From contig CAWIOS010000014.1 of NCBI GenBank assembly GCA_963837815.1, positions 19,426-83,425 on the forward strand: a DNA stretch of 64,000 nt, in the 5' to 3' direction. Every line of letters starts with the position of its first letter. Within the stretch, counting starts at the first letter, position 1. This stretch comes from Ignavibacteriota bacterium (lineage in GTDB: Bacteria; Bacteroidota; Ignavibacteria; UBA10030; UBA6906). Position numbers and translations under genes: made by a program. Positions 2,795 through 28,522 of this stretch are shown here, piece by piece. The notes beneath the pieces were generated by a model that saw only the letters and a list, made by a program, of their open reading frames with translations, was not told where the DNA came from and did not search any database.

Positions 2795-2855
2795 ACCGTC
2801 CGTCGCAGGCCTCAATTTGTCCTGAGAAGTGGGATACGAGCTGCCGGTTGCTCCT

Positions 2856-5249: not shown

Positions 5250-5367
5250 GGGAGCCTTCTTTGTTGGTGACCGGAGAAGCGTTCAGCCTACTGGCAGAAC
5301 ACCCCTTAAGGAGACTTCCGTGGCAGGGCTGCGGAAAAGAGATGTTTGCAAGGAACGTGGCTGTAAC

Positions 5368-5396
5368 AAGTTAAGGCGATGGGGGGATAATTGCAA
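5368..5396 (-). promoter_or_regulatory. Sigma70-type promoter of the kinase gene
   Basis: Minus strand TTGCAA-17 bp-TAACTT. Confidence 0.5.
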
Positions 5397-5480
5397 CCGT
5401 CTGAGTACTCGCCTGTGACGACGATCATTTCAATTTGGGATAGCTCCTAATTGGAATAAGGACGACAAGAATCCCTGCGC

Positions 5481-10183: not shown

Positions 10184-10189
10184 CGGCGC

Positions 10190-11332: not shown

Positions 11333-13155
11333 TGTTCTGTTCCTTTCACATAGGTGCCGTCGTTTGTCCAGAGCCGGTTGAACACGTAGAAAAGTCCTCC
11401 CGCGCTTGCGATGAAGAACCCGAGAAGTATGTATGCGTATTCCATTCTTCCGTACAGGAAGTTTCCCACCGAGAAGAGTGCGGACCAGATTGCCGTGCAT
11501 CCGGCAAACCAGCCGAGGAGGGCGAGAGGGATGTTTTCCCCCGGACCGGCGGCGCCGGCCGGGAGCCCCGCCTCGTTCCGGACCTCGTTCCACCCGGGGC
11601 CGAACGGGCGGACCTTTTTGTAGAATGCAATGAGCGTGCTCCGCTCGGTTTTCGGAGCGAGGAACGCCGTGAGGATCCAGCAGATCGTCGTGAAGGCGAT
11701 CGTGATGAGGAGCCCGATATGCGCGCTGACGTGCGTTCCCGTCTTGTTCAGGATAAGGAGGGCGAGGGAAACCACAAACGAGCTCACCATCGCGGCAACC
11801 TCGCTCCATGCGTTTACCCGCCACCAGAACCAACGCACGAGGTAAAGGAGCCCGGTCCCCGCGCCGACCTGCAGTATGATGTCGAACGCGTCCTTTGCGC
11901 TGTCAAGGAGGTAGACGGTCCCCGATGCCGCGAAGAAAAGCCCGAGCGTCACAAACCGCCCGACCATGACGTAGTGTTTCTCGGTCTCCGTTTTCCGGAT
12001 GAACCTTCTGTAGAAATCATGAACCAGGTACGATGCTCCCCAGTTCAGGTGCGTCAGTATCGTCGAAGAGTTTGCGGCGATCAGTCCTCCCACCATCAGC
12101 CCGATGAACCCGACGGGGAGGAACTTGAGCATCGCGGGGTAGGCGATGTCGTGCCCGAGGAGGTGAGGATCAAGCGCGGGGAACGCCGCCTGTATGTCGG
12201 AAAGCTGCGGGTAGATGATGAGCGAGCAGAGTCCCACGAGTATCCACGGCCAGGGACGGAGCACGTAATGCGCGATATTGAAAAAGAGGACCGCGGCGAG
12301 TGAATCGCGTTCCGATTTGGACGCCAGCATCCGCTGCGCGATGTAGCTTCCGCCTCCGGGCTCCGCGCCCGGGTACCAGACCGCCCACCACTGGACAGCC
12401 ACCGGCATGATAAACACCGCGACGGCGATGTCCCAGTTGTTCGTGAAATCGGGGAGTATGTTGAGGTAGTTGATTCCCCCGGGGCCTTTCAGTGCGGAAA
12501 GCTTCTGGACGAGTCCCGAGAGTCCGCCGATCTGGGGGAGCGTGACCGCAAAATACGCGGCGGCGATCACCGCGGTCATCTTGATGAAGAACTGCACCAT
12601 GTCGATGACAAGAACGCCCCAGAGTCCCGAGTACGTCGCGAAAACGGCGTTCAGGCATCCGATGAACAGGAGCGTCTGCCATCTCTCAAACCCGAAGAGT
12701 ATCCCGGCGATTTTGCATGCCGCCAGGTTGACGGACGCCATGATCATGCAGTTGAAAAAGAGGCCGAGGTAAACAGACCGGAAGCCGCGCACGAAGCTTG
12801 CCGCTTTTCCCGAATACCGGATTTCGTAGAATTCCAGGTCCGTCATCACCCCCGAGCGCCGCCAGAGTCGCGCATAAAAAAACACTGTCGATACGCCGGT
12901 CAATACGAACGCCCACCAGACCCAGTTCCCCGCGACGCCGTTCCTCCGGACGATGTCCGTGACGAGGTTCGGCGTGTCGCTGCTGAACGTCGTGGCGACC
13001 ATGGAAAGCCCCGCGAGCCACCAGGGGACGGCGCGGCCCGATGCGAAGAACTCCGACGTGCTCTTTCCCGCGCGCTTTCCGAAGAACAGCGACGGGAAGA
13101 AACAGATGATGAGCGAAATCAGGACGATAACCCAGTCCAGCAATTGAAGGTGCAC
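11329..13155 (-). CDS. Sodium:solute symporter family protein
   Basis: FFASGRAVPWWLAGLSMVATTFSSDTP, AQRML, many TM helices. Confidence 0.92.
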   Translation of the reverse strand: MHLQLLDWVIVLISLIICFFPSLFFGKRAGKSTSEFFASGRAVPWWLAGLSMVATTFSSDTPNLVTDIVRRNGVAGNWVWWAFVLTGVSTVFFYARLWRRSGVMTDLEFYEIRYSGKAASFVRGFRSVYLGLFFNCMIMASVNLAACKIAGILFGFERWQTLLFIGCLNAVFATYSGLWGVLVIDMVQFFIKMTAVIAAAYFAVTLPQIGGLSGLVQKLSALKGPGGINYLNILPDFTNNWDIAVAVFIMPVAVQWWAVWYPGAEPGGGSYIAQRMLASKSERDSLAAVLFFNIAHYVLRPWPWILVGLCSLIIYPQLSDIQAAFPALDPHLLGHDIAYPAMLKFLPVGFIGLMVGGLIAANSSTILTHLNWGASYLVHDFYRRFIRKTETEKHYVMVGRFVTLGLFFAASGTVYLLDSAKDAFDIILQVGAGTGLLYLVRWFWWRVNAWSEVAAMVSSFVVSLALLILNKTGTHVSAHIGLLITIAFTTICWILTAFLAPKTERSTLIAFYKKVRPFGPGWNEVRNEAGLPAGAAGPGENIPLALLGWFAGCTAIWSALFSVGNFLYGRMEYAYILLGFFIASAGGLFYVFNRLWTNDGTYVKGTEQ

Positions 13156-13266
13156 GGGTGGATCCTTTCGGGGGGGTGTGGAAGCCTTCGTTCCATTCGC
13201 CGGTGGACCCCAATTTGGCCAGACTTTTCCCGAGAATCAAGCCGTCCCCCGTGTGCGGGAATCACG

Positions 13267-13317
13267 TCGCGCTCGAGCGCGAACGAACTTGAAACTTCGA
13301 TCTCGAATCACGATATT
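13267..13317 (+). promoter_or_regulatory. Perfect 16-bp palindrome followed by a putative sigma70 promoter for the PAP2 pair
   Basis: TCGCGCTCGAGCGCGA at 13267-13282; TTGAAA(13289)-17 bp-GATATT(13312). Confidence 0.35.
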
Positions 13318-13407
13318 GATACACTTCCGGGTCAGTCTCCCGGGATTTTCCGGACCCTGTTTTTAAATCCGCGATCCGGGAAACCCCATCCTCAGGCAAG
13401 TGAGTGA

Positions 13408-14337
13408 ATGTGTTCTTTCAGTTCTGCACGCGGTGCGGGACGGGTTCTGTGCCTCGGCCTTGCTCTCGTCGCGCTCATTTCCGTGCAGGTGCGTTCTCAG
13501 AATGAATCAGGTCCGTCGGCGCAGGTCCGGGGTGATTCGTCGCGTGCTGAGGGGAATGCCGAGTTCCTCCCCTCGTGGCATGCGGCGATAACGAATATCC
13601 CTGCGGACTGGCTCCGTTTTGCCGGCATCGCCTTTGCGCCGCGCTATGCTCCGATAATGGCGGGGACGGCCGGGCTTACGGCTGTTCTCGTCGCAACGGA
13701 CAACGCGACGTGGATACAGTCCCACAAGTGGTACACGCAATCGCATGCGGTCAAAGTCTTGAGCGACGACGTGGAGTGGGTCGGAGACGGCCGGCCGCAG
13801 TTCGGTCTGGCCGCCGCATTCGTGCTCTACGGGTTCGCCGAACAGGATTCGCGGGCGCTCCGCACGGGGAGCCAGATCGTCGAAACGATACTCGCAAGCG
13901 GCACGGTCGTCCAGGTTCTGAAGCACATCACGGGACGCGAGAGCCCGTTCGTGTCGTCGGTCGCGGGGGGACGATGGGATCTGTTCCCGAACCAGATCGA
14001 GTATTCAAAACATGTCCCGCACTACGACGCGTTTCCGTCGGGTCATGTGACGACCGCGCTGGCCACGGTTACCGTGGTCATTGAGAACTACCCGGAATGG
14101 TGGTGGGCGCGTCCGGTAAGCTATACCGCCGTCTCGCTCCTTGCCGTGAGCATGGGGAATACGGGAATTCACTGGTACAGCGACTACCCGCTCGCCGTGG
14201 CTCTCGGGTATTCATTCGGCATGATCGCCTCCCACCCGATGGCGACAGGGGGGCTGGCGCCGGGAGAAACGCAATTCTCCGTGGCCCCGCTCCTGGAGCC
14301 GGACGGGGTGGGGATCGCCGTACGATTCTCATTTTAG
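13408..14337 (+). CDS. PAP2-superfamily protein, divergent, paralog 1
   Basis: KHITGRESP, FPSGH, HWYSD; signal peptide; C-terminal ...GIAVRFSF. Confidence 0.85.
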   Translation: MCSFSSARGAGRVLCLGLALVALISVQVRSQNESGPSAQVRGDSSRAEGNAEFLPSWHAAITNIPADWLRFAGIAFAPRYAPIMAGTAGLTAVLVATDNATWIQSHKWYTQSHAVKVLSDDVEWVGDGRPQFGLAAAFVLYGFAEQDSRALRTGSQIVETILASGTVVQVLKHITGRESPFVSSVAGGRWDLFPNQIEYSKHVPHYDAFPSGHVTTALATVTVVIENYPEWWWARPVSYTAVSLLAVSMGNTGIHWYSDYPLAVALGYSFGMIASHPMATGGLAPGETQFSVAPLLEPDGVGIAVRFSF

Positions 14338-14373
14338 ATGACGACTTTAATTCACTCGCACCCTGGAAATCGA

Positions 14374-15336
14374 ATGAAGTATTTCCATCTCATCATGGCA
14401 GTCTCTCTCGCGGGCGCCGCGCCGGGTGCGCGCCTCCTCGCGCAGGAGGAAGAGTCCAGCCCTCCCGGGACCGTCTCCGAGATCCAGCCCGATATGCACC
14501 TTGACGACGCTGACACGCTCGCCGCGGGGCAGGAAGTCTCCCCGGCGCAATCGGGTCCCGCCTGGTACTCCATGATTACGAATATTCCGGGAGACTGGGT
14601 CACGACGGGAAAACTGGCGTTCGGGTCCGAGGGGCTCAAGGTGCTGGGTGGAGTTGCCGTTGCCACGGGGATCCTATTTGTGAGCGACCACCAATTATAC
14701 GCTGTGTCCCACAATGCGTACATCCGATCCGCAAACGTGCAGTTTGCGAGCGACCAGATGATCCGCGCCGGGGATGGGAGGACGACGATCGGCATCGCGG
14801 CGGCGTTCGGTCTCTACGGGTTTGCGGCGGACGATTCGCGGGCGTTCCGGACCGCGAGCGGATTGGTCGAGGCCTTCGTGGCCTCGGGCATCACAGTCCA
14901 GCTTCTGAAGCATATCTCGGGGCGCGAGAGTCCGCAGGTCGCGACGGAACTGGCGGGGGAATGGCGGCCGTTCCCCGGACTCCGGGCATATAATAGTAAT
15001 CAACCCAGGTACTACGCATTCCCCTCCGGGCACCTCACGACGGCGATGGCGACGGTGACCGTTATCGCGGAAAACTACCCCGATGCCGGCTGGATACGAC
15101 CCGTTGGCTACAGCATCGTCGGGCTGACGGGCGTCAGTCTCGTCAACAAGGGGTGGCACTGGTACAGTGACTTCCCGCTTGCAATTGCGCTCGGCTACAC
15201 GTTCGGCAATACCGCCGCGCACCACGACGACAGTCCGGGAAGTGACATGAGTGCGGGACCTGCGGGGGCGAAATTGGACGTTTCGCCGAAAATCGGCCCG
15301 ACGGGCCCCGGCGTGATGTTCGCGCTCCAATTCTAA
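14374..15336 (+). CDS. PAP2-superfamily protein, divergent, paralog 2
   Basis: KHISGRESP, FPSGH, HWYSD; signal peptide from MKYFH (alternative start 14338); C-terminal ...GVMFALQF. Confidence 0.85.
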   Translation: MKYFHLIMAVSLAGAAPGARLLAQEEESSPPGTVSEIQPDMHLDDADTLAAGQEVSPAQSGPAWYSMITNIPGDWVTTGKLAFGSEGLKVLGGVAVATGILFVSDHQLYAVSHNAYIRSANVQFASDQMIRAGDGRTTIGIAAAFGLYGFAADDSRAFRTASGLVEAFVASGITVQLLKHISGRESPQVATELAGEWRPFPGLRAYNSNQPRYYAFPSGHLTTAMATVTVIAENYPDAGWIRPVGYSIVGLTGVSLVNKGWHWYSDFPLAIALGYTFGNTAAHHDDSPGSDMSAGPAGAKLDVSPKIGPTGPGVMFALQF

Positions 15337-16108: not shown

Positions 16109-16124
16109 AGGTACTATAAGAGGT

Positions 16125-16440
16125 TCATTCCAGCAGACGCTGTACCTCGTCTTCGAATTGGCGCGGCGACTCGGGAACTGAGTAGATGCTCACGATCGTG
16201 CCGCATTTGTCGATCACGAATGTCCTCGGGACCCCGCTGATCCCGCCGAAAAGTTAGGCGACCTCGTTCGTCCCGGGGACCACTTCGTAATTCATTCCGG
16301 TCTTTCCCGCGTATTCCCGCAGCGCATCGGGCTCGTCGAGTCCGATTCCGATTACCCGCAACCCCTTCATTTCGTATCGTGCCTGGAGCGCCACGAATTC
16401 CGGGATTTCTTGATTGCATGGGTAGCACGACGTGGAGCCC
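16125..16440 (-). pseudogene. TlpA-like thioredoxin remnant
   Basis: STSCYPCNQEIPEF...VIGIGLD...NYEV then TAA at 16254-16256; the same frame resumes LFGGISGVPRTFVIDKCG...QRLLE-TGA; N-terminus missing. Confidence 0.8.
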
Positions 16441-16579
16441 GGTGATCCCCCGCTCGCTGTATGTCGAGGTGTCCACAGGCGCCATGTAGAACGCAAGATC
16501 CGAAAGAGTTTCGTCGTCATAGATCACCCGTGCCGGGTCCGCCAGATCGACTATTTTGTAGATGTAACAACAATGCGCG

Positions 16580-16743
16580 CCGCCGGCAATTGCCGTTGAG
16601 GGGGGCTCGATCCTGGACTGAAGGAATTCAGGTCTCCTGGCCAGACATCTGACATCATGCCCGGTCGACTGAAGGGTCGTCAGAAGCCTCCCGCCGACGT
16701 ATCCGGTTGCCCCCACGATGAGGATTCTATGCTGCTTTTCAAT
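16580..16743 (-). pseudogene. N-terminal remnant of an NAD(P)-binding SDR/epimerase (YbjT-like)
   Basis: HRILIVGATGYVGGRLL...GHDVRCLARRPEFL; no canonical start before the first beta strand; similarity lost after about 50 aa. Confidence 0.75.
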
Positions 16744-16840: not shown

Positions 16841-16887
16841 TTGACAATCGTCCTTCCTCGCCGTATATTAAATCGTTCAAAACGATT
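16841..16887 (+). promoter_or_regulatory. Near-consensus sigma70 promoter plus palindromic operator
   Basis: TTGACA(16841)-17 bp-TATATT(16864); AATCGTT-caa-AACGATT at 16871-16887 over the expected start site. Confidence 0.75.
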
Positions 16888-16916
16888 ATATCATTTAATT
16901 CGGTCTTCGGGGTTCC

Positions 16917-17822
16917 ATGACATACCTCTCGACACACGAGGTAGCGGCTCTGATCAACGTTACGGAATCGACAATCAAGAGGTGGGCGGATGAGAAGCTC
17001 ATCCCCTGCCACAGGACCCTCGGCGGGCACCGCAAGTTCCTGCTCCAGGACGTTCTTCGCTTTGCCGACGAGAACGCATATCCGGTGAGCGGCACGATAG
17101 CGCCGCCGGGAAATCAGCGAGGCGGTCACGGGCTGGATATCGCGGTCCAGACCCGCAACTACGCCAGGATTGCAGATCACTTCTACGACGGGGCGTTGAA
17201 GGCCGATAAACAGGGTCTGTACGAACTGCTGTCCTATCTCTGCAAACATCATATCCCCCTCACGGCGCTTGCTGACCAGGTAATCCGACCGGCAATGACG
17301 CGTATCGGCCAGGAGTGGATGGATGGCCGACTCGAAATCAACCGGGAGCACCTCGCGTCGAACGCGGTGCTCGATGGGCTGATCCATCTTGCTCCGGAAC
17401 TATACAGGAAACCGTCTCACGGCAGATCCGCCGTCTGTGCGTGCCTCGAGGGGAATTATCACGAGCTGGGGCTTCGCGCGCTGTCGTTTTCCCTGGAAAG
17501 CGAAGGGTGGAAGGTTCATTATCTCGGCGCAAATACGCCCGTGGAGACTCTTCGCTCATTTATAAAGACCGAGCGGCCCGACGTCGTCTGCGTCTCCACG
17601 AAGATCATGAACGGAACTCATCGGGTCCTCCGCGACGTCCAGTCGATCGGCAGAGCAGTCCACAGGCTGAAGACGACATATCTCGTCGGCGGCATATCGA
17701 ACGGAGACCTGTCCGCCGCCGAACTCAAGTGCGACTATGCTTCGAATTCAACAGACGGGGCGATGGCCTTTCTCAAAGATCGCTTCCAGCTGAAACCCGG
17801 TCCGAAGAAGCGCGAACAATAA
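16917..17822 (+). CDS. CarH/LitR-like cobalamin-binding transcriptional regulator
   Basis: N-terminal MerR/excisionase-type HTH (STIKRWAD...RTLGGHRKF); W-x9-EH (WMDGRLEINREH); B12 His motif NYHELG; YLGANTP Rossmann domain. Confidence 0.88.
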   Translation: MTYLSTHEVAALINVTESTIKRWADEKLIPCHRTLGGHRKFLLQDVLRFADENAYPVSGTIAPPGNQRGGHGLDIAVQTRNYARIADHFYDGALKADKQGLYELLSYLCKHHIPLTALADQVIRPAMTRIGQEWMDGRLEINREHLASNAVLDGLIHLAPELYRKPSHGRSAVCACLEGNYHELGLRALSFSLESEGWKVHYLGANTPVETLRSFIKTERPDVVCVSTKIMNGTHRVLRDVQSIGRAVHRLKTTYLVGGISNGDLSAAELKCDYASNSTDGAMAFLKDRFQLKPGPKKREQ

Positions 17823-17899
17823 CGCTCAACCTCTGCCTTGGTGACCGGGTGAGGCCGGATCCATTGACACCGAATAATCGTATTTCTGGAAACATAAGA

Positions 17900-18487
17900 A
17901 TGACACGATATACGTTCCGACGGCAAATGTTCATCACCCGGCCTCTCGAAGAGGTGTTCCCGTTCTTCGCAAGGCCGGAGAATCTGGAGCTCCTGACGCC
18001 GCGCAGTCTCCGGTTCCAGATGCTTACCCCTGGTCCGATCCCGATGAAGGAAGGAACCCTTATCGATTATGCAATACGGTTGTTTGGCGTCCCCTTCCGC
18101 TGGACGACGTACATTGCCGGGTTCACTCCCCCCCGATCGTTTGTGGATATTCAACTCCGCGGGCCCTACTCCTTCTGGCATCACACGCACACATTCCAGG
18201 CAGACGGGGACGGCACCCTCATGACCGATGAGGTCAGGTACGCCATGCCCTGCGGTTACCTTGGCAGAGCGGTCCGCAGGATGCTCGTTAAACGTCAATT
18301 GGACATGATCTTCACGTATCGGGAAGGCAAAATAAGAGCATTTTTCGACGACAATGATCGGACAACTCTCCGGCAGCCGGTCCATACGACAGGGCAGGGT
18401 ATCCCGGCACGGCCGTTCGCCGTCCACCGCCAGGCCGGTCCATCCTTGCGGGGGAATATTCGTGACGCCGAAGGAATGACTCTATGA
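17900..18487 (+). CDS. SRPBCC (START-like) ligand-binding protein
   Basis: FFARPENLELLTP, FVDIQLRGPYSFWHHTHTF, MTDEVRY; ATG at 17900; about 40 aa C-terminal tail. Confidence 0.85.
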   Translation: MTRYTFRRQMFITRPLEEVFPFFARPENLELLTPRSLRFQMLTPGPIPMKEGTLIDYAIRLFGVPFRWTTYIAGFTPPRSFVDIQLRGPYSFWHHTHTFQADGDGTLMTDEVRYAMPCGYLGRAVRRMLVKRQLDMIFTYREGKIRAFFDDNDRTTLRQPVHTTGQGIPARPFAVHRQAGPSLRGNIRDAEGMTL

Positions 18488-18978
18488 GGAGATTGCGAGA
18501 GAAGGTGATCGGATTCCTGAAGCAGGGGATGACGCCCCGCGACCTGGCGCTCGCCTTCACTCTGGGCGTAGTGCTTGGAACGTTCCCGGTACTCGGTGCC
18601 ACGTCCCTGCTTTGCCTGATCGCAAGTGTGGTGCTTAAAATCAACATGCCGGCAATCCAGTTCGTGAACTGGATCGTATCGCCGCTGCAGCTGATGCTCA
18701 TCATCACGTTGTTCAAACTTGGCTCGGTGCTTTTCGGAGCCGGCGCTGTCACGGTTACTCTCGCCGGCATCACCGGGATGATGAGAACGGACCTGCTCGG
18801 AACCATCGGCCAGTTCCTTGTTGTCACAGTGCATGCAATCTTCGCCTGGCTTCTCATGGCTCCCCTGGCGGCAACGCTCCTCTTCGCCGTCTTCCTGCGG
18901 CTCTTCACCCGGGTGCAGATCCAGTACGTCCGCATCCGCGCGGACGCCGGATCGCACGTGAACAATCAGTCCGCATAA
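18484..18978 (+). CDS. DUF2062-family membrane protein
   Basis: TPRDLALAFTLGVVLGTFPVLG pattern; ATGA overlap with the SRPBCC gene. Confidence 0.75.
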   Translation: MRRLREKVIGFLKQGMTPRDLALAFTLGVVLGTFPVLGATSLLCLIASVVLKINMPAIQFVNWIVSPLQLMLIITLFKLGSVLFGAGAVTVTLAGITGMMRTDLLGTIGQFLVVTVHAIFAWLLMAPLAATLLFAVFLRLFTRVQIQYVRIRADAGSHVNNQSA

Positions 18979-18988
18979 GGAGCCCATC

Positions 18989-19732
18989 ATGGCTATCGCG
19001 GTCTTCTTCCTCGGGCACTGGTTCCTTTCCCTCTTCTCGCAGACTTTTTTTCTGCACCGCTATGCCGCACACGGAATGTTCAGGATGTCAAGGAGATGGG
19101 AACGGTTCTTCTTCGTATTCACGTACCTTGTTCAGGGATCATCGTTTCTGAACCCTCGGGCGTACGCGGTGATGCACCGCATGCATCACGCGTTCAGCGA
19201 TACGGAAAAGGACCCCCATTCCCCGAACTTTTTCAGGGACGTGTTCCGTTTCATGTGGCACACGAAAAAGGTCTATATGGGTTTGCTGACGGGCACGCTC
19301 AGGCCCGAAAGGCGGTTCACCGGAAACTACCCCGTCTGGGAGCGATTTGGAAGATTCTCGGATCAATGGGCGCCACGCATTCTCTGGGGCCTTCTGGTCG
19401 GACTGTTCTACTGGCAGTGTGCGACCGCCTGGTGGATGTTTCTGCTCCTCCCGGTTCACTTCCTGATGGGCCCTCTTCACGGCGCCATCGTGAACTGGTG
19501 CGGACACAAATACGGATATGTTAATTTCAACACACGCGACAGGTCGCGCAATACGCTTAACATCGACATCCTTCTGATGGGGGAATTGTTCCAGAACAAT
19601 CATCACAGATTTCCGGGAAGACCGAATTTTGCGGTCAGGTGGTTCGAGGTTGACCCGACGTATTATCTGATCCTCCTGCTTCAGCGCGTCGGCATCATAC
19701 GCCTTGTCAGGCGGCCTGGTTCGGCGACCTGA
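18989..19732 (+). CDS. Membrane fatty-acid (acyl-CoA/acyl-lipid) desaturase
   Basis: His boxes HRYAAH, HRMHH, QNNHH; DPHSP. Confidence 0.92.
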   Translation: MAIAVFFLGHWFLSLFSQTFFLHRYAAHGMFRMSRRWERFFFVFTYLVQGSSFLNPRAYAVMHRMHHAFSDTEKDPHSPNFFRDVFRFMWHTKKVYMGLLTGTLRPERRFTGNYPVWERFGRFSDQWAPRILWGLLVGLFYWQCATAWWMFLLLPVHFLMGPLHGAIVNWCGHKYGYVNFNTRDRSRNTLNIDILLMGELFQNNHHRFPGRPNFAVRWFEVDPTYYLILLLQRVGIIRLVRRPGSAT

Positions 19733-19770
19733 CGCATCAACTATCGGTCAAGTGACCTCCGGAGAACCTC

Positions 19771-20103
19771 ATGATAACAACGTTACGTGTCCTGTTCATT
19801 CTGATCTTTGTGTATATGACGTATACCGTCATAGCAACAAGCCTCGAAAGCAATCTTGTTGCGGATTGGTCAGGTCTTGCAACAATTCCATGGATGACCG
19901 CCACGCTCAAAGACTTCTATGCGAACATTGTAATAATCGCTCTCTGGATGGTGTACAAGGAACGCGGCTGGGTTTCACGGCTCGTCTGGGTCGTTCTCTT
20001 CGTCTGCCTGGGAAGCATAGCAACATCAGCCTATGTCCTGATCCAGCTCTTTCGCGTTTCGACAGGAGATTCTGTCGAAAGGGTTCTGGTAAATCACCTG
20101 TGA
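19771..20103 (+). CDS. DUF1475-family membrane protein
   Basis: PWMTATLKDFY, WMVYKE, LGSIAT pattern; about 3 TM helices. Confidence 0.75.
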   Translation: MITTLRVLFILIFVYMTYTVIATSLESNLVADWSGLATIPWMTATLKDFYANIVIIALWMVYKERGWVSRLVWVVLFVCLGSIATSAYVLIQLFRVSTGDSVERVLVNHL

Positions 20104-20200
20104 CATTCGATGAATCATAATCGGCATCCTGCCGTCCATCGGCGTCAGCGCCGAATTTTAGAGCGATTCACCGTATTCCGACGAGTATGAAGAGAGGTGG

Positions 20201-21004
20201 ATGATGATAGCATTGATGCTTGAAGGGTATGCGATTCTGGTGATCATGATGGCAACAGTCTGGTTGATTTACCGCCGGATCGACAACGCGGCCATCGTGG
20301 ATGTCGGGTGGGGGGGCGGGTTCGCGATTCTGGGCCTCGTCTTCTTCCTCCTCGGCCAGGGCCTCCCGGAGCGGAGAGTCCTCATAAGCGTACTCATGGT
20401 CCTGTGGGGCGGGCGCCTTGCATGGCATCTGTTGAAGGACCGCATCCTCTCCGGCAGGCCCGAGGACGGCCGCTATCAGGATTTCCGCGCAAAGTGGAGA
20501 GATCGCATTGATCTGAAGTTCTTTCTGTTCTTCCAGGCTCAGGCCGCGCTCGTCATTCTCTTTTCAACCCCGATGGCGCTTCTCTCATCGGCAACTGCTC
20601 CTCCGGTTACGCCGGTTGAATGGATCGGCGTCGCGGTGTGGCTCGTCGGCTTTTCAGGTGAAGCGGCGGCAGATTCTCAACTCAAGCGGTTTAAGGACGA
20701 TCCGGTCAACAGGGGGAGAACGTGTCAATCGGGCCTCTGGAAATATTCGCGTCACCCGAACTACTTCTTTGAGTGGGTGATTTGGGTGTCGTATTCCCTG
20801 ATGGCGCTCGCCGTGCCATACGGCTGGATCGGGATCCTCGCCCCGCTGGGCATGCTCTATATTCTCCTCCGGATCACGGGGGTATCGTTGACTGAGGAGC
20901 ACGCCCTGCGGACGCGGGGCGCGGAATATAGAGAATACCAGGGAACAACGAGTCCCTTTGTGCCTCTTCCACGCCGGGCGCCGCGAAAGGTGGTTGCGCG
21001 ATGA
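20201..21004 (+). CDS. DUF1295 steroid-5-alpha-reductase-like membrane protein
   Basis: [36 protein letters not shown]. Confidence 0.9.
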
Positions 21005-22119
21005 ATATCGATAGACTGCTGGAGAAAAATATTCTTCCCGATCTGGCGATCCGGTTCGGCATCCGGCGCCTCCTGCGTTCTCGGCTCCGATTGGAAACGA
21101 TGCAATCACCCGAGGCCCGGCAGCGGCGTCTCATGGATCTGATACGAGAGATGAAAAGGAGCCCGATTGCGGTACGGACGGAGGACGCCAACGGGCAGCA
21201 CTATGAGGTGCCGACGGACTTCTTCCGCCACGTCCTCGGTCCACACATGAAGTACAGCTGCTGCTATTGGCCGGACGGTCATATGAGCCTCGGTGCTGCG
21301 GAAGAAACAATGCTTGAGATGACGTGCGAAAGGGCGGAACTTCGTGACGGCTACGAGATCCTCGAACTGGGCTGCGGCTGGGGATCTCTCACGCTCTTCA
21401 TGGCAGAACGCTATCCTGCGTGCCGGATTACCGCGGTCTCCAATTCCAGGACCCAGAAAGTCTGGATTGACGGCGAGGCCGCCAGGCGAGGGCTGCATAA
21501 CGTTACCGTGATAACCGCCGATATGAACACATTCGACATTGATTGTGCATTTGACAGGATCGTCTCGGTCGAGATGTTTGAGCACATGCGAAACTATAAG
21601 CGCTTGCTGGGATCGGTGGCGCGCTGGCTGAAAGACGACGGCAAACTGTTTGTGCACATCTTCTCGCACACGGAGCTTGCGTACCTGTTTGAGGACCGAG
21701 ACTCCACGGACTGGATGGCTAAGTACTTTTTCTCCGGCGGCATCATGCCCAGCGATAATCTGCTCCTGTACTTCAATGATGACGTGAAAGTGGAGAACCA
21801 CTGGCGGGTGAGCGGAATCCACTACCGGCGCACCGCAGAGGCATGGCTTGCCAATATGGACGCCGCAAAAGCCGAAATCATGCCATTGCTTGCTTCGACG
21901 TACGGCGTGGACCAGGCGACAAAATGGTGGGTATACTGGAGAGTGTTCTTCATGGCATGCGCAGAGCTCTGGGCGTTCCGCAACGGCGGGGAATGGATCG
22001 TCAGTCACTACCTGTGTACGAGAACGAACGCGGCATTGCCGCGTGAGAAGTGCGCCACGGGCTTCCCTCTGCAGGCATCCCGGGGATGCCCTCCGGAGAA
22101 TTACGAGAGGATTTCATGA
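21001..22119 (+). CDS. SAM-dependent methyltransferase, Cfa-like family
   Basis: [45 protein letters not shown]. Confidence 0.9.
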
Positions 22120-23378
22120 CATCGATCGCGATAATCGGCACCGGTATCGCCGGCATGGGGTGCGGACACTTCCTTCACCGGAAATTCGACATCACGATGT
22201 TCGAACAGAACGACTACGCCGGGGGGCACACAAATACCGTGACGGTCGACGAAGATGGTATCGCAATCCCGATCGACACGGGTTTTATAGTGTACAACGA
22301 GGTGACCTATCCGAACCTGACCCGGTTGTTCCGTGAGCTCGACGTCCGGACAACGGAGACATCCATGTCGTTCAGCAGTCAGCACGTGCCGTCCCGGCTT
22401 GAATTCTCGGGTTCTGGTTTGAGCGGGTTGTTCGGACAACGGAAGAACCTGTTTTGCCCCTCCTTCTGGCGGCTTCTTCTCGCGATCAACCGCTTCAACA
22501 GGGAAGCGCCGGAAATTATTGACGATGCGCGCTATGCCGGTCACACGCTCAGCCGGTATGTCGCCGAGAAGAATTACAGCGAAGACTTCCTCAATAAATA
22601 TCTGATCCCGATGAGTTCCGCCGTCTGGTCAACGCCTGCGGAGAAGATGCTGAATTTCCCGGCAATGACCCTGGTCCGGTTCTTCAAGAACCACGGTTTC
22701 CTCGGACTCGACACTCAGCATCAATGGCGTACTGTCGTGGGCGGCAGCAGGTCGTACCGAGACAGGCTGATCGCCCCATTCCGGGAACGCATCCGCCTCA
22801 ACTCCCGGGTCCGAAGCGTTGCACGGCAGAACGGGGGAGTTGTGCTTGAAACGGCCGATGGTTCACGCCAGGCGTTTGATAAAGTCATCTTTGCGTCCCA
22901 TGCCGATCAAACGCTGGACATGCTCGCGGATGCAGGCGCAGATGAGCGGCGCCTCCTTGGTGAATTCAAGTATCAGAGAAATACTGCAACACTCCACACA
23001 GACAGTCGGGTGATGCCCGGGCACAGGCGAAACTGGTCGTCTTGGAACTACCGGATCGAAGCAAATGCAGACGGCGTCCTGATCCCGTCGATCGTCTATT
23101 ACATGAACAGTCTGCAGAGGGTGTCACAAAAGAAGGACTATTTCATCTCCATCGGTGATCCCGGCAGCGTACAACCCGGCCGGATCCTGAAAACAATTGT
23201 GTACGAGCATCCTCTCTACACGGCCGGCGCAGTGGCGGCCCAGAAGGAACTCCGTTCGTTGAACAAACCGGGACCCGTCTATTATTGCGGCAGCTACTTC
23301 CGCTACGGGTTCCACGAGGATGCCCTCACGTCGGCGATCGAGGTGTCCGAAGACGTGAGAGGAGGGAAAGTCTGGTGA
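22116..23378 (+). CDS. FAD-dependent oxidoreductase (UfaD/RSP1091-like)
   Basis: [23 protein letters not shown]...YPNL, WSSWNY, YGFHEDA; ATG at 22116. Confidence 0.9.
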
Positions 23379-24154
23379 TGCAATCCTCCCTGTACCGATC
23401 GACGGTCATGCATCACCGGCTCGCCCCGGCGAAACACTGCTTCGTGTACGGCATCTTTCTGTTCTGTCTCGATCTTGACGAGATCCTGATGCTCGACCGG
23501 AACCTCTGGCTCTTCGGGCACAACCGGAAAAACGTGTTTGAGTTCAGGGATGCCGACCACCTGTCCGCGGGCAGGGACTCTGTCAAGGACAGCGTCATTG
23601 CCTATGTGCGGTCGCAAGGAGTCCGGGATCCCGTCGCCAGAGTGCTCCTCATCACACACCTGCGGACGCTGGGTTACGTCTTCAATCCGGTTTCCTTTTA
23701 CTACTGTTTCGGACCCGGCGACGAGCCCGTGTGCTGCGTTGCGGAGGTCATGAACACGTACCGGGAGATGAAACTCTTTTTGATCCGGCGGGAGCAATTT
23801 GCCGGGGGGATGTTCCGGATGGTAAGGCCGAAGCATTTTTATGTCTCCCCGTTCGTAGATCTCGACGATATGTTCGAGTTTCGCCTGGCACTCCCCCGCG
23901 ACAGTCTCCGGATCCATATCAATGACATCGACAAGAGGGGGAACACGTTTCTTGTCACGTCACTGACCGGGAAGCGACGGGAGCTGACAAATTCCAGGCT
24001 CCTGGGGTACCTCTTTCGGTTCCCCCTCATCACCGTCAGAATAATCTGGTCCATTCATTGGCAGGCGCTGCACCTGTATGTGAAAGGTCTCCCCTACCAC
24101 AAGAAAGCATCTGATCCACATTTGCAACGAGAGGTTCACTATGCACGACACTGA
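23378..24154 (+). CDS. DUF1365-family protein (UfaO/RSP1090-like)
   Basis: VMHHRLAP, GYVFNPVSFYYC, AEVMNT, KHFYVSPF, IHWQALHL; TGATG coupling. Confidence 0.9.
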   Translation: MQSSLYRSTVMHHRLAPAKHCFVYGIFLFCLDLDEILMLDRNLWLFGHNRKNVFEFRDADHLSAGRDSVKDSVIAYVRSQGVRDPVARVLLITHLRTLGYVFNPVSFYYCFGPGDEPVCCVAEVMNTYREMKLFLIRREQFAGGMFRMVRPKHFYVSPFVDLDDMFEFRLALPRDSLRIHINDIDKRGNTFLVTSLTGKRRELTNSRLLGYLFRFPLITVRIIWSIHWQALHLYVKGLPYHKKASDPHLQREVHYARH

Positions 24155-25415
24155 AATCCTAACGTATCCACATTCCCTTCCCGCATCCCGTCCATTGTCC
24201 GAACGGATTGTTCTCGGGACGCTCGAAGGAATGAGCAAGGGAATGATCACGGTCACGCTCCCCGGTGGTGAAGTACTTCGCTTTGGCACGAACGACGCCA
24301 CGCTGCGCGCAGCGATGAACATCATTCGTCCTGCCTTCTTCATGAAATGCATTCTCTACGGCGACGTCGGATTCAGCGAGGCGTATGTTGACGGCGACTG
24401 GGAAACGGACGACATTACAAGCGTCATTTCCTGGTTCCTGCTCAACGTCGAGAACGCTCCGACAGTATCGGGCAGCCGGCGGAAGACGCGGGTGTTCAAC
24501 CTCCTGAAAACGGTCAACACGATCGCCCACCGTCTCCGCGACAACTCACTGCGGGGAAGCAGCCGCAACATCAGGGCGCATTACGACCTCAGCAATGAGT
24601 TCTTCAGCCGGTTTCTCGATCCGGGAATGACATACTCTTCGGCGTATTTTTCAAAGCCCGGCCTCACGCTGCAGGAAGCCCAGACCGAAAAGTACGACCG
24701 ACTCTGCCGTCAGCTTCGCCTGCAGCAAACGGACAATGTACTCGAAATCGGGAGCGGCTGGGGCGGCTTCGCAATCCACGCAGCAACGACGTACGGCTGC
24801 CGCGTAACAACAATAACGGTCTCCGAAGAGCAATTCCACTATACACGGGATCGGATTCGTCGCGAAGGTCTGGAGGATCGCATTGAAGTTCGTCTCCAGG
24901 ATTACCGGACAATCACCGGATCGTTCGACAAGGTCGTTTCGATTGAAATGCTGGAGGCAGTGGGTCACCGGTATATGGAGACGTTCTTCGGCAAGTGTCA
25001 CGAGGTCCTGAAGAAGGACGGTCTGCTGGGGATGCAGGTGATCGTTTCGCCGGACTCACGGTACGATTCGTTACGGAAAGGAGTCGATTGGATTCAGAAG
25101 CACATCTTCCCGGGCTCACTCCTCCCGTCGATCGCCCGCATCAATCAGGCGATCAATTCCACGGGCGACCTGTTCCTCCACGACCTCAAGAACCTCGGAC
25201 TGCATTACGCAACAACGCTTCGTCTCTGGCGCGAGACCTTCAACACGAACATCAAGGGAGTCCGTGACCTGGGGTTCGACGATCGTTTTGTCAGAACGTG
25301 GAACTACTACCTCAGCTATTGTGAGGCAGCATTCGCCATGCGCAACATCAATGTGGTGCAGATGGTGTACACGCGGCCCAACAATGCGTTGCTAATGCGG
25401 GACGGTTGTCGGTAG
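24141..25415 (+). CDS. cfa: Cyclopropane-fatty-acyl-phospholipid synthase family methyltransferase (UfaM-like)
   Basis: NIRAHYDLSNEFF, MTYSSA, LEIGSGWG, SIEMLEAVG, IFPG, YYLSYCEAAF. Confidence 0.92.
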   Translation: MHDTEILTYPHSLPASRPLSERIVLGTLEGMSKGMITVTLPGGEVLRFGTNDATLRAAMNIIRPAFFMKCILYGDVGFSEAYVDGDWETDDITSVISWFLLNVENAPTVSGSRRKTRVFNLLKTVNTIAHRLRDNSLRGSSRNIRAHYDLSNEFFSRFLDPGMTYSSAYFSKPGLTLQEAQTEKYDRLCRQLRLQQTDNVLEIGSGWGGFAIHAATTYGCRVTTITVSEEQFHYTRDRIRREGLEDRIEVRLQDYRTITGSFDKVVSIEMLEAVGHRYMETFFGKCHEVLKKDGLLGMQVIVSPDSRYDSLRKGVDWIQKHIFPGSLLPSIARINQAINSTGDLFLHDLKNLGLHYATTLRLWRETFNTNIKGVRDLGFDDRFVRTWNYYLSYCEAAFAMRNINVVQMVYTRPNNALLMRDGCR

Positions 25416-25507
25416 TTCTTCGTTCACGTGACCCGACGCTGGAATGGGCAAACGGGCTTTACGTTCGTCACTGTTCTCAGTATTGTAGAATGACACCGGA
25501 TCGTGAA

Positions 25508-26143
25508 ATGATCGATAAACTTACGCACACAATCGGTAGATTACTGGCAGCGATGCCTTTCATTCTTCCATTCATCCCAACGGTCGCCATGGCAATCGAA
25601 GAACCCAAATACACGGTCGTCAAGAAAGATGATGACGTCGAAGTCCGTCTGTACCTGCCCTTCATTGTGGCGGAAACGGTCGTCGACACGTCTGATTTTG
25701 ATATAGCCTCAAATGAGGGCTTCCGAAGACTCGCCGGCTATATCTTTGGAGGGAACAGCGTCCAGCAAAAACTCTCAATGACATCTCCGGTGTTGACTGA
25801 AAAGTCCCGGAAGATTGCGATGACGGCTCCCGTGCAAACCGAACGACGGGGAACTGTTCTGCGAATGACATTCATGATGCCGTCCGAGTTTACCCTGGAT
25901 TCGTTGCCGGTTCCCGATGATCCGAGAGTGAAGCTTCGCCGGGTACCGGCCGGGAAATTCGCCGCAATCACTTTCTCCGGTCGATGGACAGAGGAGAATT
26001 TCAACGAACACACGGAAGACTTGAAGAAGTGGATAGAAAAAGAGGGGCTGAAAGCCGCCGGGGAACCTGTCGTTGCGCGATACAATCCCCCCTTTGTTCC
26101 GTTCTTTTTCCGTCGGAACGAAGTCATGATACCCCTGGAATAG
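25508..26143 (+). CDS. SOUL heme-binding protein
   Basis: IEEPKYTV, GFRRLAGYIFGGN, IAMTAPV, FMMPS, ARYNPPF...RRNEV; start uncertain. Confidence 0.9.
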   Translation: MIDKLTHTIGRLLAAMPFILPFIPTVAMAIEEPKYTVVKKDDDVEVRLYLPFIVAETVVDTSDFDIASNEGFRRLAGYIFGGNSVQQKLSMTSPVLTEKSRKIAMTAPVQTERRGTVLRMTFMMPSEFTLDSLPVPDDPRVKLRRVPAGKFAAITFSGRWTEENFNEHTEDLKKWIEKEGLKAAGEPVVARYNPPFVPFFFRRNEVMIPLE

Positions 26144-26199
26144 GCTCTCCGCCGGCTTCAGGGCGGGTATTCGTCGAACATCAGAGGAGACATTGAAGC

Positions 26200-26595
26200 A
26201 TGGAATACTCAGAATACGTCCCCGGCGTCTGCAACATCGGCCCGGCAGAAATCGCAATGCGAAAGCGTACGGGTTGGATTGGATTCGCTTTGATCGTTTT
26301 CCTCTGGGGAGTCCTGACCTCTCTCGGATCATCGGTGATGTGGTTTTCCCTCCTCTTCATCCCATCCGCGATATCGGGAGTTGGATTCATCCAGGCGAAA
26401 ATGCATTTCTGTGCGGCTTTTGGAATGAGGGGACTTTTCAACTTCGGACCGAAGGTGGGAAAGACTGACACCGCACTGCAGGCTGAATTCAGGGCTCAGG
26501 ACAAAAAAAAGTCAATGCAAATACTCCTGTATTCTGCTCTCGTCGGAATCGCGGTCGCATTCGCCGCCTGCATTGTACGGCAAATCAGTTCGTGA
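26200..26595 (+). CDS. Small membrane protein, possibly YgaP/DUF2892-like
   Basis: AGGAG SD; CNIGPAE...R and HFC motifs; about 3 TM helices. Confidence 0.7.
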   Translation: MEYSEYVPGVCNIGPAEIAMRKRTGWIGFALIVFLWGVLTSLGSSVMWFSLLFIPSAISGVGFIQAKMHFCAAFGMRGLFNFGPKVGKTDTALQAEFRAQDKKKSMQILLYSALVGIAVAFAACIVRQISS

Positions 26596-26677: not shown

Positions 26678-28246
26678 TCAGTTCGCGCCGCTGATTCTAA
26701 AAACATACGCATAGCGGCAAGGAGGCACTTCCGGCGTGTGGATCGTGAGTCCTTCCTCGTTCTGTTCCCATTGCAGCTTCGCCTGCACACCAACAAGTTC
26801 CACCTTCCTGATATTGCCAAACCACAATCTCTCGGCCTTCGCCAGTGAACGGACGGTGATTGTGCCGTTGTGCGGCCAGCCGAGCGCGATTGCGTACAGG
26901 GTGTTCCCTTTGGTTGTGAACCGGATATCTTCAGAAGTGAGCGGAGTCTTGTTCTGTTTGAAGTCGCCTCCCTGCACACCTGTTTTTCCTTCACCAGAGA
27001 TTTTCCAGGGTCGCGTGCCGTAGATCGCTTCTCCATTCAGATCGAGCCACTTACCCACATTGAGCAGTATCGATCGTTGGTCATCGGGCAATGTGCCGTC
27101 TGACCGAAGACCGACGTTCAGCAGCAGGTTCCCATTTTTGCTCACGATGTCGCAGAGGTTGTGGATGATGACCGTGTCGCTCAACTCGGGCTTCCCGGAA
27201 TCAAAATACCAATTCTCCGGTATGGACGTATCAGTTTGCCATGGGTGAGGGAGTATAGTGTTCGTTTGACCTTTCTCGATATCCAGAACGATTGCTCCGG
27301 AATCCGGAACTGAACCGGGCTCCCACGATTTGATATTGAGCACCGCGTCAAGTCTTCCCTGGTGCCACCGCTGGCTGCTGTTGTAGAAATGGGAGGCGAT
27401 TTCGAGACCATAGTGTTCCATCCACGCCCGGGCTTTCTTGCAGCCATCCGAAGGGCATATCATCGGCATGGGGCCATCGAACCAGAGGAGATCGGGTTGA
27501 TACTTGTCAATAAGTTCCTTTGTCCGGGAAAACCATTTCTCACAATATGCCGTGTCGGGCGGTTCCGTGCATTGATGGGGGCGCGAATAGAGGTCCTGTG
27601 GGTCATATCCTTCCCACCAGAGGCCCTTCCCCTCCTCCTTCGTGAGATTCCCGTCGTAGGGGACTCCGTGTTTTTCCCCCGTCCCATCGCTGCCGTGGGA
27701 GGTGGAGAACCAGTCCCACGAACGGTCGGAATGTGAGGACACACCAAAACGGAGGCCGTACTTCCCGGCGGCCCGCTTCCATTCCCCGACAATATCGCGA
27801 TGAGGACCCATGTTCACGGAATTCCACGGTTGGAATGTGGATGCATAGTTGTCGAAATTGTCATGATGGACGGCCACGGGGACGATGTACTTCGCGCCAA
27901 TTGACCGGTAAAACCTCACAAGCGAATCCGGATCCCATTTCTCCGCCCGCCACAGAGGGATGAGGTCTTTGTACCCGAATTCAGACGGATGTCCGTAGTG
28001 GGCGGTATGGTACTTGTAGGTCGTTCCCCATTCAGCGCCGTGCTGCATGTACATCTGACGGGCGTACCATCCGTTTTCATGTGCAGGCACGCTTTGCACT
28101 CCCCAGTGCATGAAGATGCCGAATTTTGCATCGCGGTACCAGGCGGGAGCGACGTACTGATGAAGGGATTCCCAGTTTGGCTCAAATGTCTGCGAAAAGG
28201 CCGACGAGCCGAATCCGAGCAGAGAAATCAGGAAGATCGCTTTCAT
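26678..28246 (-). CDS. GH29 alpha-L-fucosidase
   Basis: WYRDAKFGIFMHWG, HHDNF, LWFDG, DIVSKNGNLLLN, GEAIYGTRPW; signal peptide from ATG 28246. Confidence 0.93.
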   Translation of the reverse strand: MKAIFLISLLGFGSSAFSQTFEPNWESLHQYVAPAWYRDAKFGIFMHWGVQSVPAHENGWYARQMYMQHGAEWGTTYKYHTAHYGHPSEFGYKDLIPLWRAEKWDPDSLVRFYRSIGAKYIVPVAVHHDNFDNYASTFQPWNSVNMGPHRDIVGEWKRAAGKYGLRFGVSSHSDRSWDWFSTSHGSDGTGEKHGVPYDGNLTKEEGKGLWWEGYDPQDLYSRPHQCTEPPDTAYCEKWFSRTKELIDKYQPDLLWFDGPMPMICPSDGCKKARAWMEHYGLEIASHFYNSSQRWHQGRLDAVLNIKSWEPGSVPDSGAIVLDIEKGQTNTILPHPWQTDTSIPENWYFDSGKPELSDTVIIHNLCDIVSKNGNLLLNVGLRSDGTLPDDQRSILLNVGKWLDLNGEAIYGTRPWKISGEGKTGVQGGDFKQNKTPLTSEDIRFTTKGNTLYAIALGWPHNGTITVRSLAKAERLWFGNIRKVELVGVQAKLQWEQNEEGLTIHTPEVPPCRYAYVFRISGAN

Positions 28247-28522
28247 TGGTCGTGTGAGAAGGTGCGTGGTGGTGGGCGTAACGGTTCCCCCCGCAGAGTT
28301 TTCCGTCTCAGCGCCGTTCCGGGACAATTAACGTAACCAGCTGCTATGTAAAAAAGCAAGCCCCGGGAGTATTTGTTTTGAACCTGTATGATATTTTCCT
28401 CACGCGAGAGCGGCTGATCATTCTGCTATTATATAGACGTGACCCGCCGGGGCGGGTCTCGAGCCCGGGGCTTCCCGCGTGAGCCTGCGTGGTCCCGCCT
28501 GTCACGGGCGGCAGGGACAATA

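Follow-up and report, generated by a model that had tools for sequence, protein, structure and literature searches.

The window, by which we mean the whole stretch of 64,000 nucleotides (nt) analysed here (contig CAWIOS010000014.1 of assembly GCA_963837815.1, from an Ignavibacteriota bacterium), contains a run of twelve co-oriented genes on its plus strand, from 16917 to 26595. The run starts with carH-A, which encodes a predicted light-sensing repressor, and continues with eleven genes that include a candidate furan fatty acid (FuFA) pathway (Table 1). Families could be assigned by Pfam to eleven of the twelve. Neighbouring genes overlap at five junctions (18484, 21001, 22116, 23378, and 24141), of which the first three are 4-nt ATGA overlaps, the fourth is a TGA and an ATG with one base in common (23376-23380), and the fifth is a 14-nt overlap of the DUF1365 and Cfa-like genes (24141-24154); the remaining gaps measure 10-97 nt. 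A first-pass annotation, made by a model from the letters alone, had described a regulator leading 11 co-oriented genes with these domains and with overlaps at 18484, 21001, 22116, 23376, and 24141. The gene calls and Pfam bear this out, every overlap being present, with the qualification that the SRPBCC match lies under its cut-off. Terminator-like sites inside the cluster are no commoner than in shuffled sequence. In what follows, G numbers denote genomes (G000 is the present one), C numbers contigs, and L numbers extracted loci.

Table 1. Predicted features of the carH-A locus, in window coordinates
Feature	Position	Strand	Basis
Promoter: -35 TTGACA 16841-16846, 17-nt spacer, -10 TATATT 16864-16869	16841-16869	+	11/12 matches
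Putative CarH operator TATATTAAATCGTTCAAAACGATTATATCA, overlapping -10 and transcription start	16864-16893	+	Kept in 6/6 orthologous promoters
carH-A, adenosylcobalamin-type CarH/LitR (CtMerR-like) predicted light-sensing repressor, 301 aa	16917-17822	+	Pfam HTH_17/MerR + B12-binding_2 + B12-binding; PDB 8jbs
SRPBCC/polyketide-cyclase-like lipid-binding protein, 195 aa	17900-18487	+	Polyketide_cyc2 E 1e-4, 23.1 bits, under 27.4-bit cut-off
DUF2062 membrane protein	18484-18978	+	Pfam 44.6 bits; 4-nt overlap with preceding gene
Membrane fatty-acid desaturase, 247 aa	18989-19732	+	FA_desaturase 61.8 bits; NCBIfam DesA family 101 bits, under cut-off
DUF1475 small membrane protein	19771-20103	+	Pfam 76.3 bits
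DUF1295 membrane protein (steroid-reductase/ICMT-like superfamily)	20201-21004	+	Pfam 233.6 bits
MT2, second CMAS-family S-adenosylmethionine (SAM) methyltransferase, candidate FufM analogue	21001-22119	+	Pfam CMAS 147 bits
UfaD-like NAD/FAD-binding amine-oxidase/phytoene-desaturase-type oxidoreductase	22116-23378	+	Amino_oxidase 70.9 bits, NAD_binding_8 46.9 bits
UfaO-like DUF1365 protein	23378-24154	+	Pfam 237.2 bits, profile positions 1-233 of 235
UfaM-like CMAS-family methyltransferase (Cfa-like), 424 aa	24141-25415	+	Pfam CMAS 293.5 bits
SOUL heme-binding-family protein, start 25490 or 25508	25490-26143	+	Pfam 179.9 bits
131-aa membrane protein, three Cys, last co-oriented gene	26200-26595	+	No Pfam match

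The product of carH-A carries a helix-turn-helix at residues 3-53 (HTH_17, 41 bits; MerR, 32.3 bits; MerR_1, 28.8 bits), followed by B12-binding_2 (residues 87-158) and B12-binding (residues 171-261) domains, both above the Pfam cut-off. Its closest match in the PDB is CtMerR (8jbs/8jbt; E 2.7e-45, 158 bits, residues 3-288), and Thermus CarH/LitR (3whp, 5c8d) is reached only at E 5e-9. According to the available part of PMC11796333, light sensors of this kind share the signature GxxW, EH, GxxH (with the lower axial His), and GxxxP, and CtMerR binds adenosylcobalamin (AdoCbl), shifts its spectrum under 530-nm pulses, and passes from tetramer to monomer in the light. All four motifs are found in carH-A as GQEW, EH, GNYH, and GANTP, where they align with those of CtMerR and Thermus CarH (TtCarH). 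The W-x9-EH and NYHELG motifs from which the regulator had originally been called CarH-like are both present, as W-MDGRLEINR-EH and EGNYHELG, and its description as an AdoCbl-type CarH/LitR-like protein is strengthened by the domains, the signature motifs, and the homology to a validated photoreceptor. On this evidence, carH-A is predicted to be a class I, AdoCbl-type CarH/LitR-like sensor of the CtMerR branch and not CarH proper; it is placed in that branch because CtMerR is its best match and its score against the CarH equivalog model falls far under the cut-off. AdoCbl binding, a response to light, and repression by carH-A would be expected from the same features. Orthologues that are 47-55% identical to carH-A occur in G004, G028, G036, G020, and G013.

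The sole strong sigma-70-like promoter between 16000 and 27500 is TTGACA-17-TATATT ahead of carH-A, every other candidate reaching at most 9/12, and the start coordinate that the first-pass annotation gave to the cluster, 16841, coincides with its -35 hexamer. The promoter-operator block 16841-16893 consists of this promoter followed by AAATCGnnCAAAACG, and the putative operator holds AATCGTT-N3-AACGATT, which can also be read as a repeat AAAnCG-N3-AAAnCG. When the upstream regions of six orthologous regulator genes from five genera were aligned, TTGAC(A/T)-17-TATATT together with AAATCGnnCAAAnC(G/A)nnTAT was found in 6/6, both hexamers being invariant or nearly so. Loci L030 and L031 entered the analysis for this alignment only.

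Genomes were then searched with the pattern TATATTAWATCGNNNAAANCRNNNAT, allowing up to two mismatches and using the reversed pattern as control. The search gave 2 matches and 0 control matches in the present genome (5.3 Mb), 10 and 1 in G004, G020, G013, G028, and G036, and 4 and 0 in G008, G001, G002, G003, and G005, that is, 16 matches against one reversed control over the 11 genomes. Both matches in the present genome are the promoters of carH-A and of carH-B, a second such regulator on contig C22 that is 39% identical to carH-A, and 12 of the 16 lie directly upstream of a carH gene (six carH-A, six carH-B). The block overlaps the -10 hexamer and is nearly confined to carH promoters, which points to autoregulation of carH-A via a conserved operator at its own promoter. 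The other four matches comprise one with two mismatches, one before the homologous lipid cluster of G004, and two copies elsewhere, namely before an extracytoplasmic function (ECF) sigma factor gene in G020 (L062 (G020:C124) 1501-2177) and before a DUF4397 gene in G036 (L060 (G036:C8) 711-1526). The copy before the ECF sigma gene is reminiscent of the LitR-LitS arrangement of Streptomyces.

The match in G004, a genome of the same genus, bears on the lipid genes. It lies at G004:C7:77649-77674, only 28 nt before the first gene of the homologous cluster, which is preceded by PALP, JAB, and ThiF genes and has no adjacent regulator; carH-A of G004 is located on a different contig, where a TonB-dependent receptor gene follows it. 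Because the same block precedes the G004 cluster though the regulator is unlinked, the lipid cluster can be assigned to the carH-A regulon, and the earlier claim that the regulator controls the lipid genes gains support from this second site. In this genus, the lipid cluster thus appears to bear the regulator's operator whether the regulator is adjacent or not, as judged from two genomes. The window promoter and 5′ leader are closer to the promoter of the G004 cluster than to that of G004 carH-A; therefore, carH in the present genome seems to have been placed behind the cluster's own light-regulated promoter, and its insertion there is suggested by the comparison of the leaders. The arrangement in which the regulator heads the cluster is seen only in this genome, and the operator-to-cluster link in two genomes. 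Collectively, carH-A sits at the head of the operon and very probably switches it. The 77-nt gap between carH-A and the SRPBCC gene holds a TTGACA (17865-17870) followed by AATAATCGT, within 17865-17890; the gap shows no -10 to go with it, and the site may be what is left of an earlier promoter-operator.

Within the cluster, the flavin adenine dinucleotide (FAD) protein, the DUF1365 protein, and the Cfa-like protein (22116-25415) match in families and order the ufaD-ufaO-ufaM genes of Rhodopseudomonas palustris (RPA2571-2569), and all three overlap. The available part of PMC7380195 describes UfaD (RSP1091) of Rhodobacter sphaeroides as an NAD/FAD-binding, phytoene-desaturase-like protein, UfaO (RSP1090) as a DUF1365 protein whose inserted oxygen comes from O2, UfaM as a SAM methylase, and FufM as a further methylase that shares 26% identity with UfaM and yields the dimethyl form; the earlier equation of these three enzymes with the FAD, DUF1365, and Cfa-like families agrees with that text. 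Halomonas carries the three ufa genes one after another, and Escherichia coli expressing the methylase of that cluster forms 11-methyloctadec-12-enoate (PMC12089945). The FAD protein of the window gives weak matches to the HpnE, CrtD, and phytoene desaturase models of NCBIfam. The Cfa-like protein scores under the cut-offs of the true-Cfa equivalog models (278.6 versus 400 and 295.9 versus 600), and its gene is placed after the DUF1365 gene, as is ufaM in R. palustris and Halomonas. MT2 and the Cfa-like protein share 26% identity. In a homologue search, MT2 fell within a large family whose members are about 345 aa long and bear generic names only. The desaturase contains the readable motifs HRYAAH, HRMHH, and QNNHH, which we take to be its His boxes; its membership of a conserved six-gene module, found also in Puia sp. 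(see below), fits a role in substrate supply but does not prove one.

The order desaturase-DUF1295-MT2-FAD-DUF1365-Cfa-like recurs in G004 and in a metagenome-assembled genome (MAG) of Puia sp., with DUF1295 adjoining the second methyltransferase in both. A second cluster is located upstream of the window on the same contig (L005, G000:C14:360-6827) and reads SRPBCC-desaturase-MT2-FAD-DUF1365-Cfa-like-SOUL fragment, followed by an outer membrane protein beta-barrel gene. The Cfa-like proteins of this cluster and of the window share 79% identity, and the two clusters are about 79% identical at the protein level; the second cluster is devoid of DUF2062, DUF1475, and DUF1295, and the contig begins 360 nt before it. 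Because the order recurs in G004, the Puia sp. MAG, and the second cluster (there without DUF1295), the six genes form a conserved module rather than a local accretion. An SRPBCC homologue is the first gene in the L005 and G004 clusters too. The SOUL and 131-aa genes are not conserved with the module, since SOUL is present only as a fragment in L005 and no SOUL gene was seen after the Cfa-like gene in G004. The six-gene module was seen in Bacteroidota genomes, and only the DUF1365 gene was traced into Verrucomicrobiota-labelled MAGs. Taken together, the family content and gene order make a furan fatty acid the most likely product of the cluster.

An adenosyltransferase of the PduO type, by which cobalamin can be turned into AdoCbl, is encoded in the genome, where no CobA-type enzyme was found. 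A search for ChrR (TIGR02451) gave no match in this genome, which is rated 100% complete, whereas the Caulobacter control did give one. No photolyase, phytoene/squalene synthase, or ChrR gene is found in the window, in accordance with the first-pass annotation; the photolyase gene is on C22, and SQS_PSY genes are on C5, C6, and C17. The latter are tandem pairs with near-equal scores at three loci (G000:C5:12366-13951, C6:8425-10010, and C17:143631-145216). Along with the duplicated cluster, the 5.3-Mb size, and the contamination of 4.62%, they may reflect real paralogy or some strain mixing.

The sole photolyase gene of the genome is headed, together with an NAD-epimerase/DUF1731 gene, by carH-B with its similar operator (G000:C22:30074-33500; L032 8053-11460), and from this similarity cross-regulation between carH-A and carH-B appears possible. 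In G028, the carH-A orthologue heads genes for photolyase, glutathione peroxidase, SRPBCC, lipocalin, and TudS-DUF1722 (RudS) (L029 (G028:C75) 2157-7176), a set that is a compact, typical light-stress operon. The TudS-DUF1722 gene of this set is of the RudS-type tRNA 4-thiouridine desulfidase kind, and RudS genes are frequent in light-responsive operons (PMC11417400). In G004, the orthologue (L028 (G004:C6) 8524-14729) heads the TonB-dependent receptor gene and three open reading frames (ORFs) without a Pfam family, so that cobalamin uptake could be tied there to a sensor that destroys its own cofactor in the light.

We propose that the cluster is a light-derepressed operon that modifies membrane acyl chains under the control of an AdoCbl sensor and makes furan fatty acids, a reading to which we give a probability of roughly 0.6. 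Without light, the regulator would hold AdoCbl, probably form a tetramer like CtMerR and TtCarH, and occupy the operator (16864-16893) over the -10 hexamer and the transcription start, which would block transcription of carH and the eleven downstream genes. Green, blue, or UV light would photolyse AdoCbl, the oligomer would dissociate, and the operon would be transcribed. The enzymes would then act on phospholipid acyl chains: the desaturase could provide a cis-monoene, the Cfa-like UfaM-type methylase would convert it into a methyl-branched trans-ene, the UfaD-type FAD protein would form a conjugated diene, and the UfaO-type DUF1365 protein would insert oxygen from O2 and close the furan ring. 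A second methyl group, or some other final change to the chain, may come from MT2 acting with DUF1295. The furan fatty acids would scavenge light-generated singlet oxygen and radicals. Co-transcription and every chemical step of this scheme are inferred from gene layout and family membership. A more specific and tentative version, possible though on the unlikely side, is that the gene of a CtMerR-type AdoCbl sensor has come to lie behind the light-regulated promoter of the genes that this sensor controls, so that a self-contained green-light switch drives the six-gene module toward a furan lipid not yet described, for instance a dimethyl or shorter-chain one, built on a self-introduced double bond.

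Several observations weigh against the proposed operon. The regulator has a Met after its Trp, at the position of His132 of TtCarH, a residue needed there for bis-His ligation and monomerisation, and it scores 58 bits against a cut-off of 400 in the NCBIfam CarH equivalog model NF052513. As to the former, PMC11796333 reports an Arg at this position in CtMerR, whose light state is reached without bis-His ligation; His132 is therefore not a defining residue for the wider sensor kind, because CtMerR with Arg is still light-responsive. On the side of the enzymes, the UfaM-type rather than cyclopropane outcome predicted for the Cfa-like protein is a family-level assignment, and RSP1089 (402 aa, about the size of a cluster gene) lies in the R. 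sphaeroides operon yet is dispensable for FuFA synthesis, as are RSP1087-1089 in general, according to the available text of PMC7380195. The TonB-receptor context of the G004 orthologue is also compatible with a part in B12 economy. The second cluster, L005, is without the full promoter-operator pattern and has only a weak 15-nt core match, AAAACGTATAAAACG, at C14:266-280; the short core AAANCGNNNAAANCG gave 16 genome matches against 9 in the control, one of them 80 nt before this cluster, and as a regulatory link this match is suggestive only. Moreover, the promoter is sigma-70-like, whereas many Bacteroidota use another consensus.

The distribution of the cluster belongs to the same side of the balance. 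DUF1365 occurs in 3 of 41 related genomes and in 16 of 401 sampled genomes of the phylum, this genome being included in both counts. A CarH-like match at E ≤ 1e-10 is present in seven of the 15 other DUF1365 genomes of the phylum, and in none of the 15 does a CarH-like gene lie beside the DUF1365 cluster, the matches being on other contigs or 240 kb off (G401). A scan of the collection gave 18 loci. The nearest ones from other genera are 42-50% identical and stem mostly from Verrucomicrobiota-labelled MAGs, with a Bacteroidia MAG and the Puia MAG besides. Neighbours were checked at 13 of these 18 loci (L037, L039, L042, L043, and L053, on contigs of ≤5.1 kb, were omitted); none of the 13 genomes has a full-length regulator beside the cluster, and five have B12-domain-only matches. 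These searches near DUF1365 genes depend on the B12 domain, and LitR classes that lack it would escape them. One B12-domain match, at G433:C16:65018-65500 inside the range of L038, was rejected as a numeric coincidence, the ORF there not being similar to the regulator.

The alternative that survives best keeps the same light and AdoCbl control and gives the cluster a product other than a furan, such as cyclopropane, mid-chain methyl, conjugated-diene, or other oxidised acyl chains, with the desaturase, DUF1295, and MT2 defining a different end product. This is plausible insofar as all enzyme assignments are at family level, these three proteins stand outside the proven three-enzyme pathway, the dispensable RSP1089 shows that an operon member need not serve FuFA synthesis, and the host phylum is not among the demonstrated FuFA producers in the available parts of PMC7380195 and PMC12089945. 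However, a DUF1365 protein, an FAD desaturase, and a CMAS methylase in this order have been the FuFA pathway wherever tested (fully in R. palustris, and for UfaM in Halomonas), and the Cfa-like protein falls under the true-Cfa equivalog cut-offs, so that we consider a non-furan product unlikely.

An improbable alternative is that the regulator controls only itself, or reports cobalamin supply instead of light, and that the lipid genes answer to their own promoter in 17823-17899 or to another signal, for example singlet oxygen. The TTGACA hexamer in the 77-nt gap after carH, the TonB-dependent receptor gene behind the G004 orthologue, and the second cluster without a full operator would all fit such an arrangement. 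Yet the operator directly before the G004 cluster makes the cluster a target in its own right, and the TTGACA in the gap lacks a matching -10 and is not listed in the promoter scan. A cobalamin gauge or a singlet-oxygen signal is likewise disfavoured, since all four light-sensor motifs are present, an orthologue and the paralogue head photolyase operons, and ChrR was not found in the genome. That related strains are mixed in the bin and the carH-cluster junction is chimeric is very improbable: the contamination of 4.62%, a size of 5.3 Mb against 3.4-4.9 Mb in relatives, the two clusters about 79% identical, and the three near-identical tandem SQS_PSY loci would agree with it, but a single 84.8-kb contig holds both clusters, the sequence runs unbroken from promoter and leader through carH into the cluster, and the leader matches that of the G004 cluster, as expected of a real rearrangement at a functional promoter.

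Around the cluster, a fucosidase gene (26678-28327) is convergent with its end. The 131-aa protein gave no family in Pfam and only unnamed clusters in an Atlas search, and no similarity was found between it and the 167-aa ORF at the same place in G004. Just upstream of the promoter, an ORF on the minus strand (16114-16716) matches NAD-binding epimerase families over its first 35 residues only, the remainder resembling low-complexity read-through, and may represent a short-chain dehydrogenase/reductase (SDR) gene that has been truncated or frameshifted. Further upstream of the regulator, two PAP2-family phosphatase genes are found in tandem (13408-15336), and G004 also has a PAP2 gene upstream of its orthologous regulator (L028 6978-7778, opposite strand).

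Light induction of furan fatty acid genes, AdoCbl-based CarH/LitR repressors, and the UfaM/UfaD/UfaO furan pathway are all known already, and nothing known would be overturned by the operon proposed here. Its novelty would lie in the direct combination of control by a B12 photoreceptor with furan-type lipid genes: no link of an AdoCbl-type CarH/LitR protein to such genes was found in the literature searched, which did not extend to supplements and key subscription papers. If the more specific version above is true, it would be the first circuit from an AdoCbl sensor to lipids, and this phylum would gain its first furan fatty acid pathway. The little-studied CtMerR branch now has a nameable operator and regulon, with lipid-modifying instead of carotenoid targets, and thereby a testable DNA site and a physiological role. 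In addition, the desaturase, DUF1295, and MT2 may explain how furan lipids arise in bacteria without vaccenate-rich membranes, and a compact green-light switch with its operator would be on offer for synthetic biology.

Among known systems, TtCarH, Myxococcus CarH, and the LitR proteins of Streptomyces and Bacillus combine a MerR-type helix-turn-helix with an AdoCbl module and act as dark repressors that are released by light, as is predicted for carH-A, and the W-x9-EH motif and lower-ligand His of carH-A align with those of TtCarH (3whp). These class I proteins differ from it in that their targets are carotenoid genes and not lipid-modifying genes; moreover, carH-A is distant from them (E 5e-9) and has Met for His132. 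We also take its putative operator sequence to differ from the TtCarH operator. CtMerR is closer in domain order, in a full-length match, and in the GxxW, EH, GxxH, and GxxxP motifs, and both proteins are without a His at the position of TtCarH His132. The difference is that target genes of CtMerR are absent from the available text of PMC11796333, whereas for carH-A an operator and regulon can be named and light sensing is predicted.

A precedent for LitR-type control of such genes in another phylum, which the first-pass annotation had thought possible, is found in Pseudomonas, where class II LitR proteins (PplR1/PmlR) with a short LOV photoreceptor govern a light-induced cluster of ufaM, an FAD oxidoreductase, a short-chain dehydrogenase, and hypothetical genes, plus phrB (PMC9758184). 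In both systems, a LitR-family repressor would govern a ufaM-type cluster, as is established for Pseudomonas. However, class II LitR retains no more than the four-helix bundle, reportedly does not bind B12, and relies on the separate LOV protein to sense light (PMC9758184), whereas carH-A has the full B12 module and would need no partner. In Vibrio, a MerR-like protein and ChrR both mediate the blue-light response, and a cyclopropane fatty acid (CFA) synthase gene is blue-light-induced (PMC5241685). With R. sphaeroides and R. palustris, the cluster shares the same three enzyme families, in the order of R. palustris, and the 26% identity of MT2 to the Cfa-like protein equals the figure for FufM and UfaM in the available part of PMC7380195. 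The same text places the ufa genes of R. sphaeroides under sigmaE-ChrR, an ECF sigma/anti-sigma pair that responds to singlet oxygen, whereas ChrR was not found here, and the module described here adds to the Rhodobacter and R. palustris set the desaturase, DUF1295, DUF1475, DUF2062, SRPBCC, and SOUL genes.

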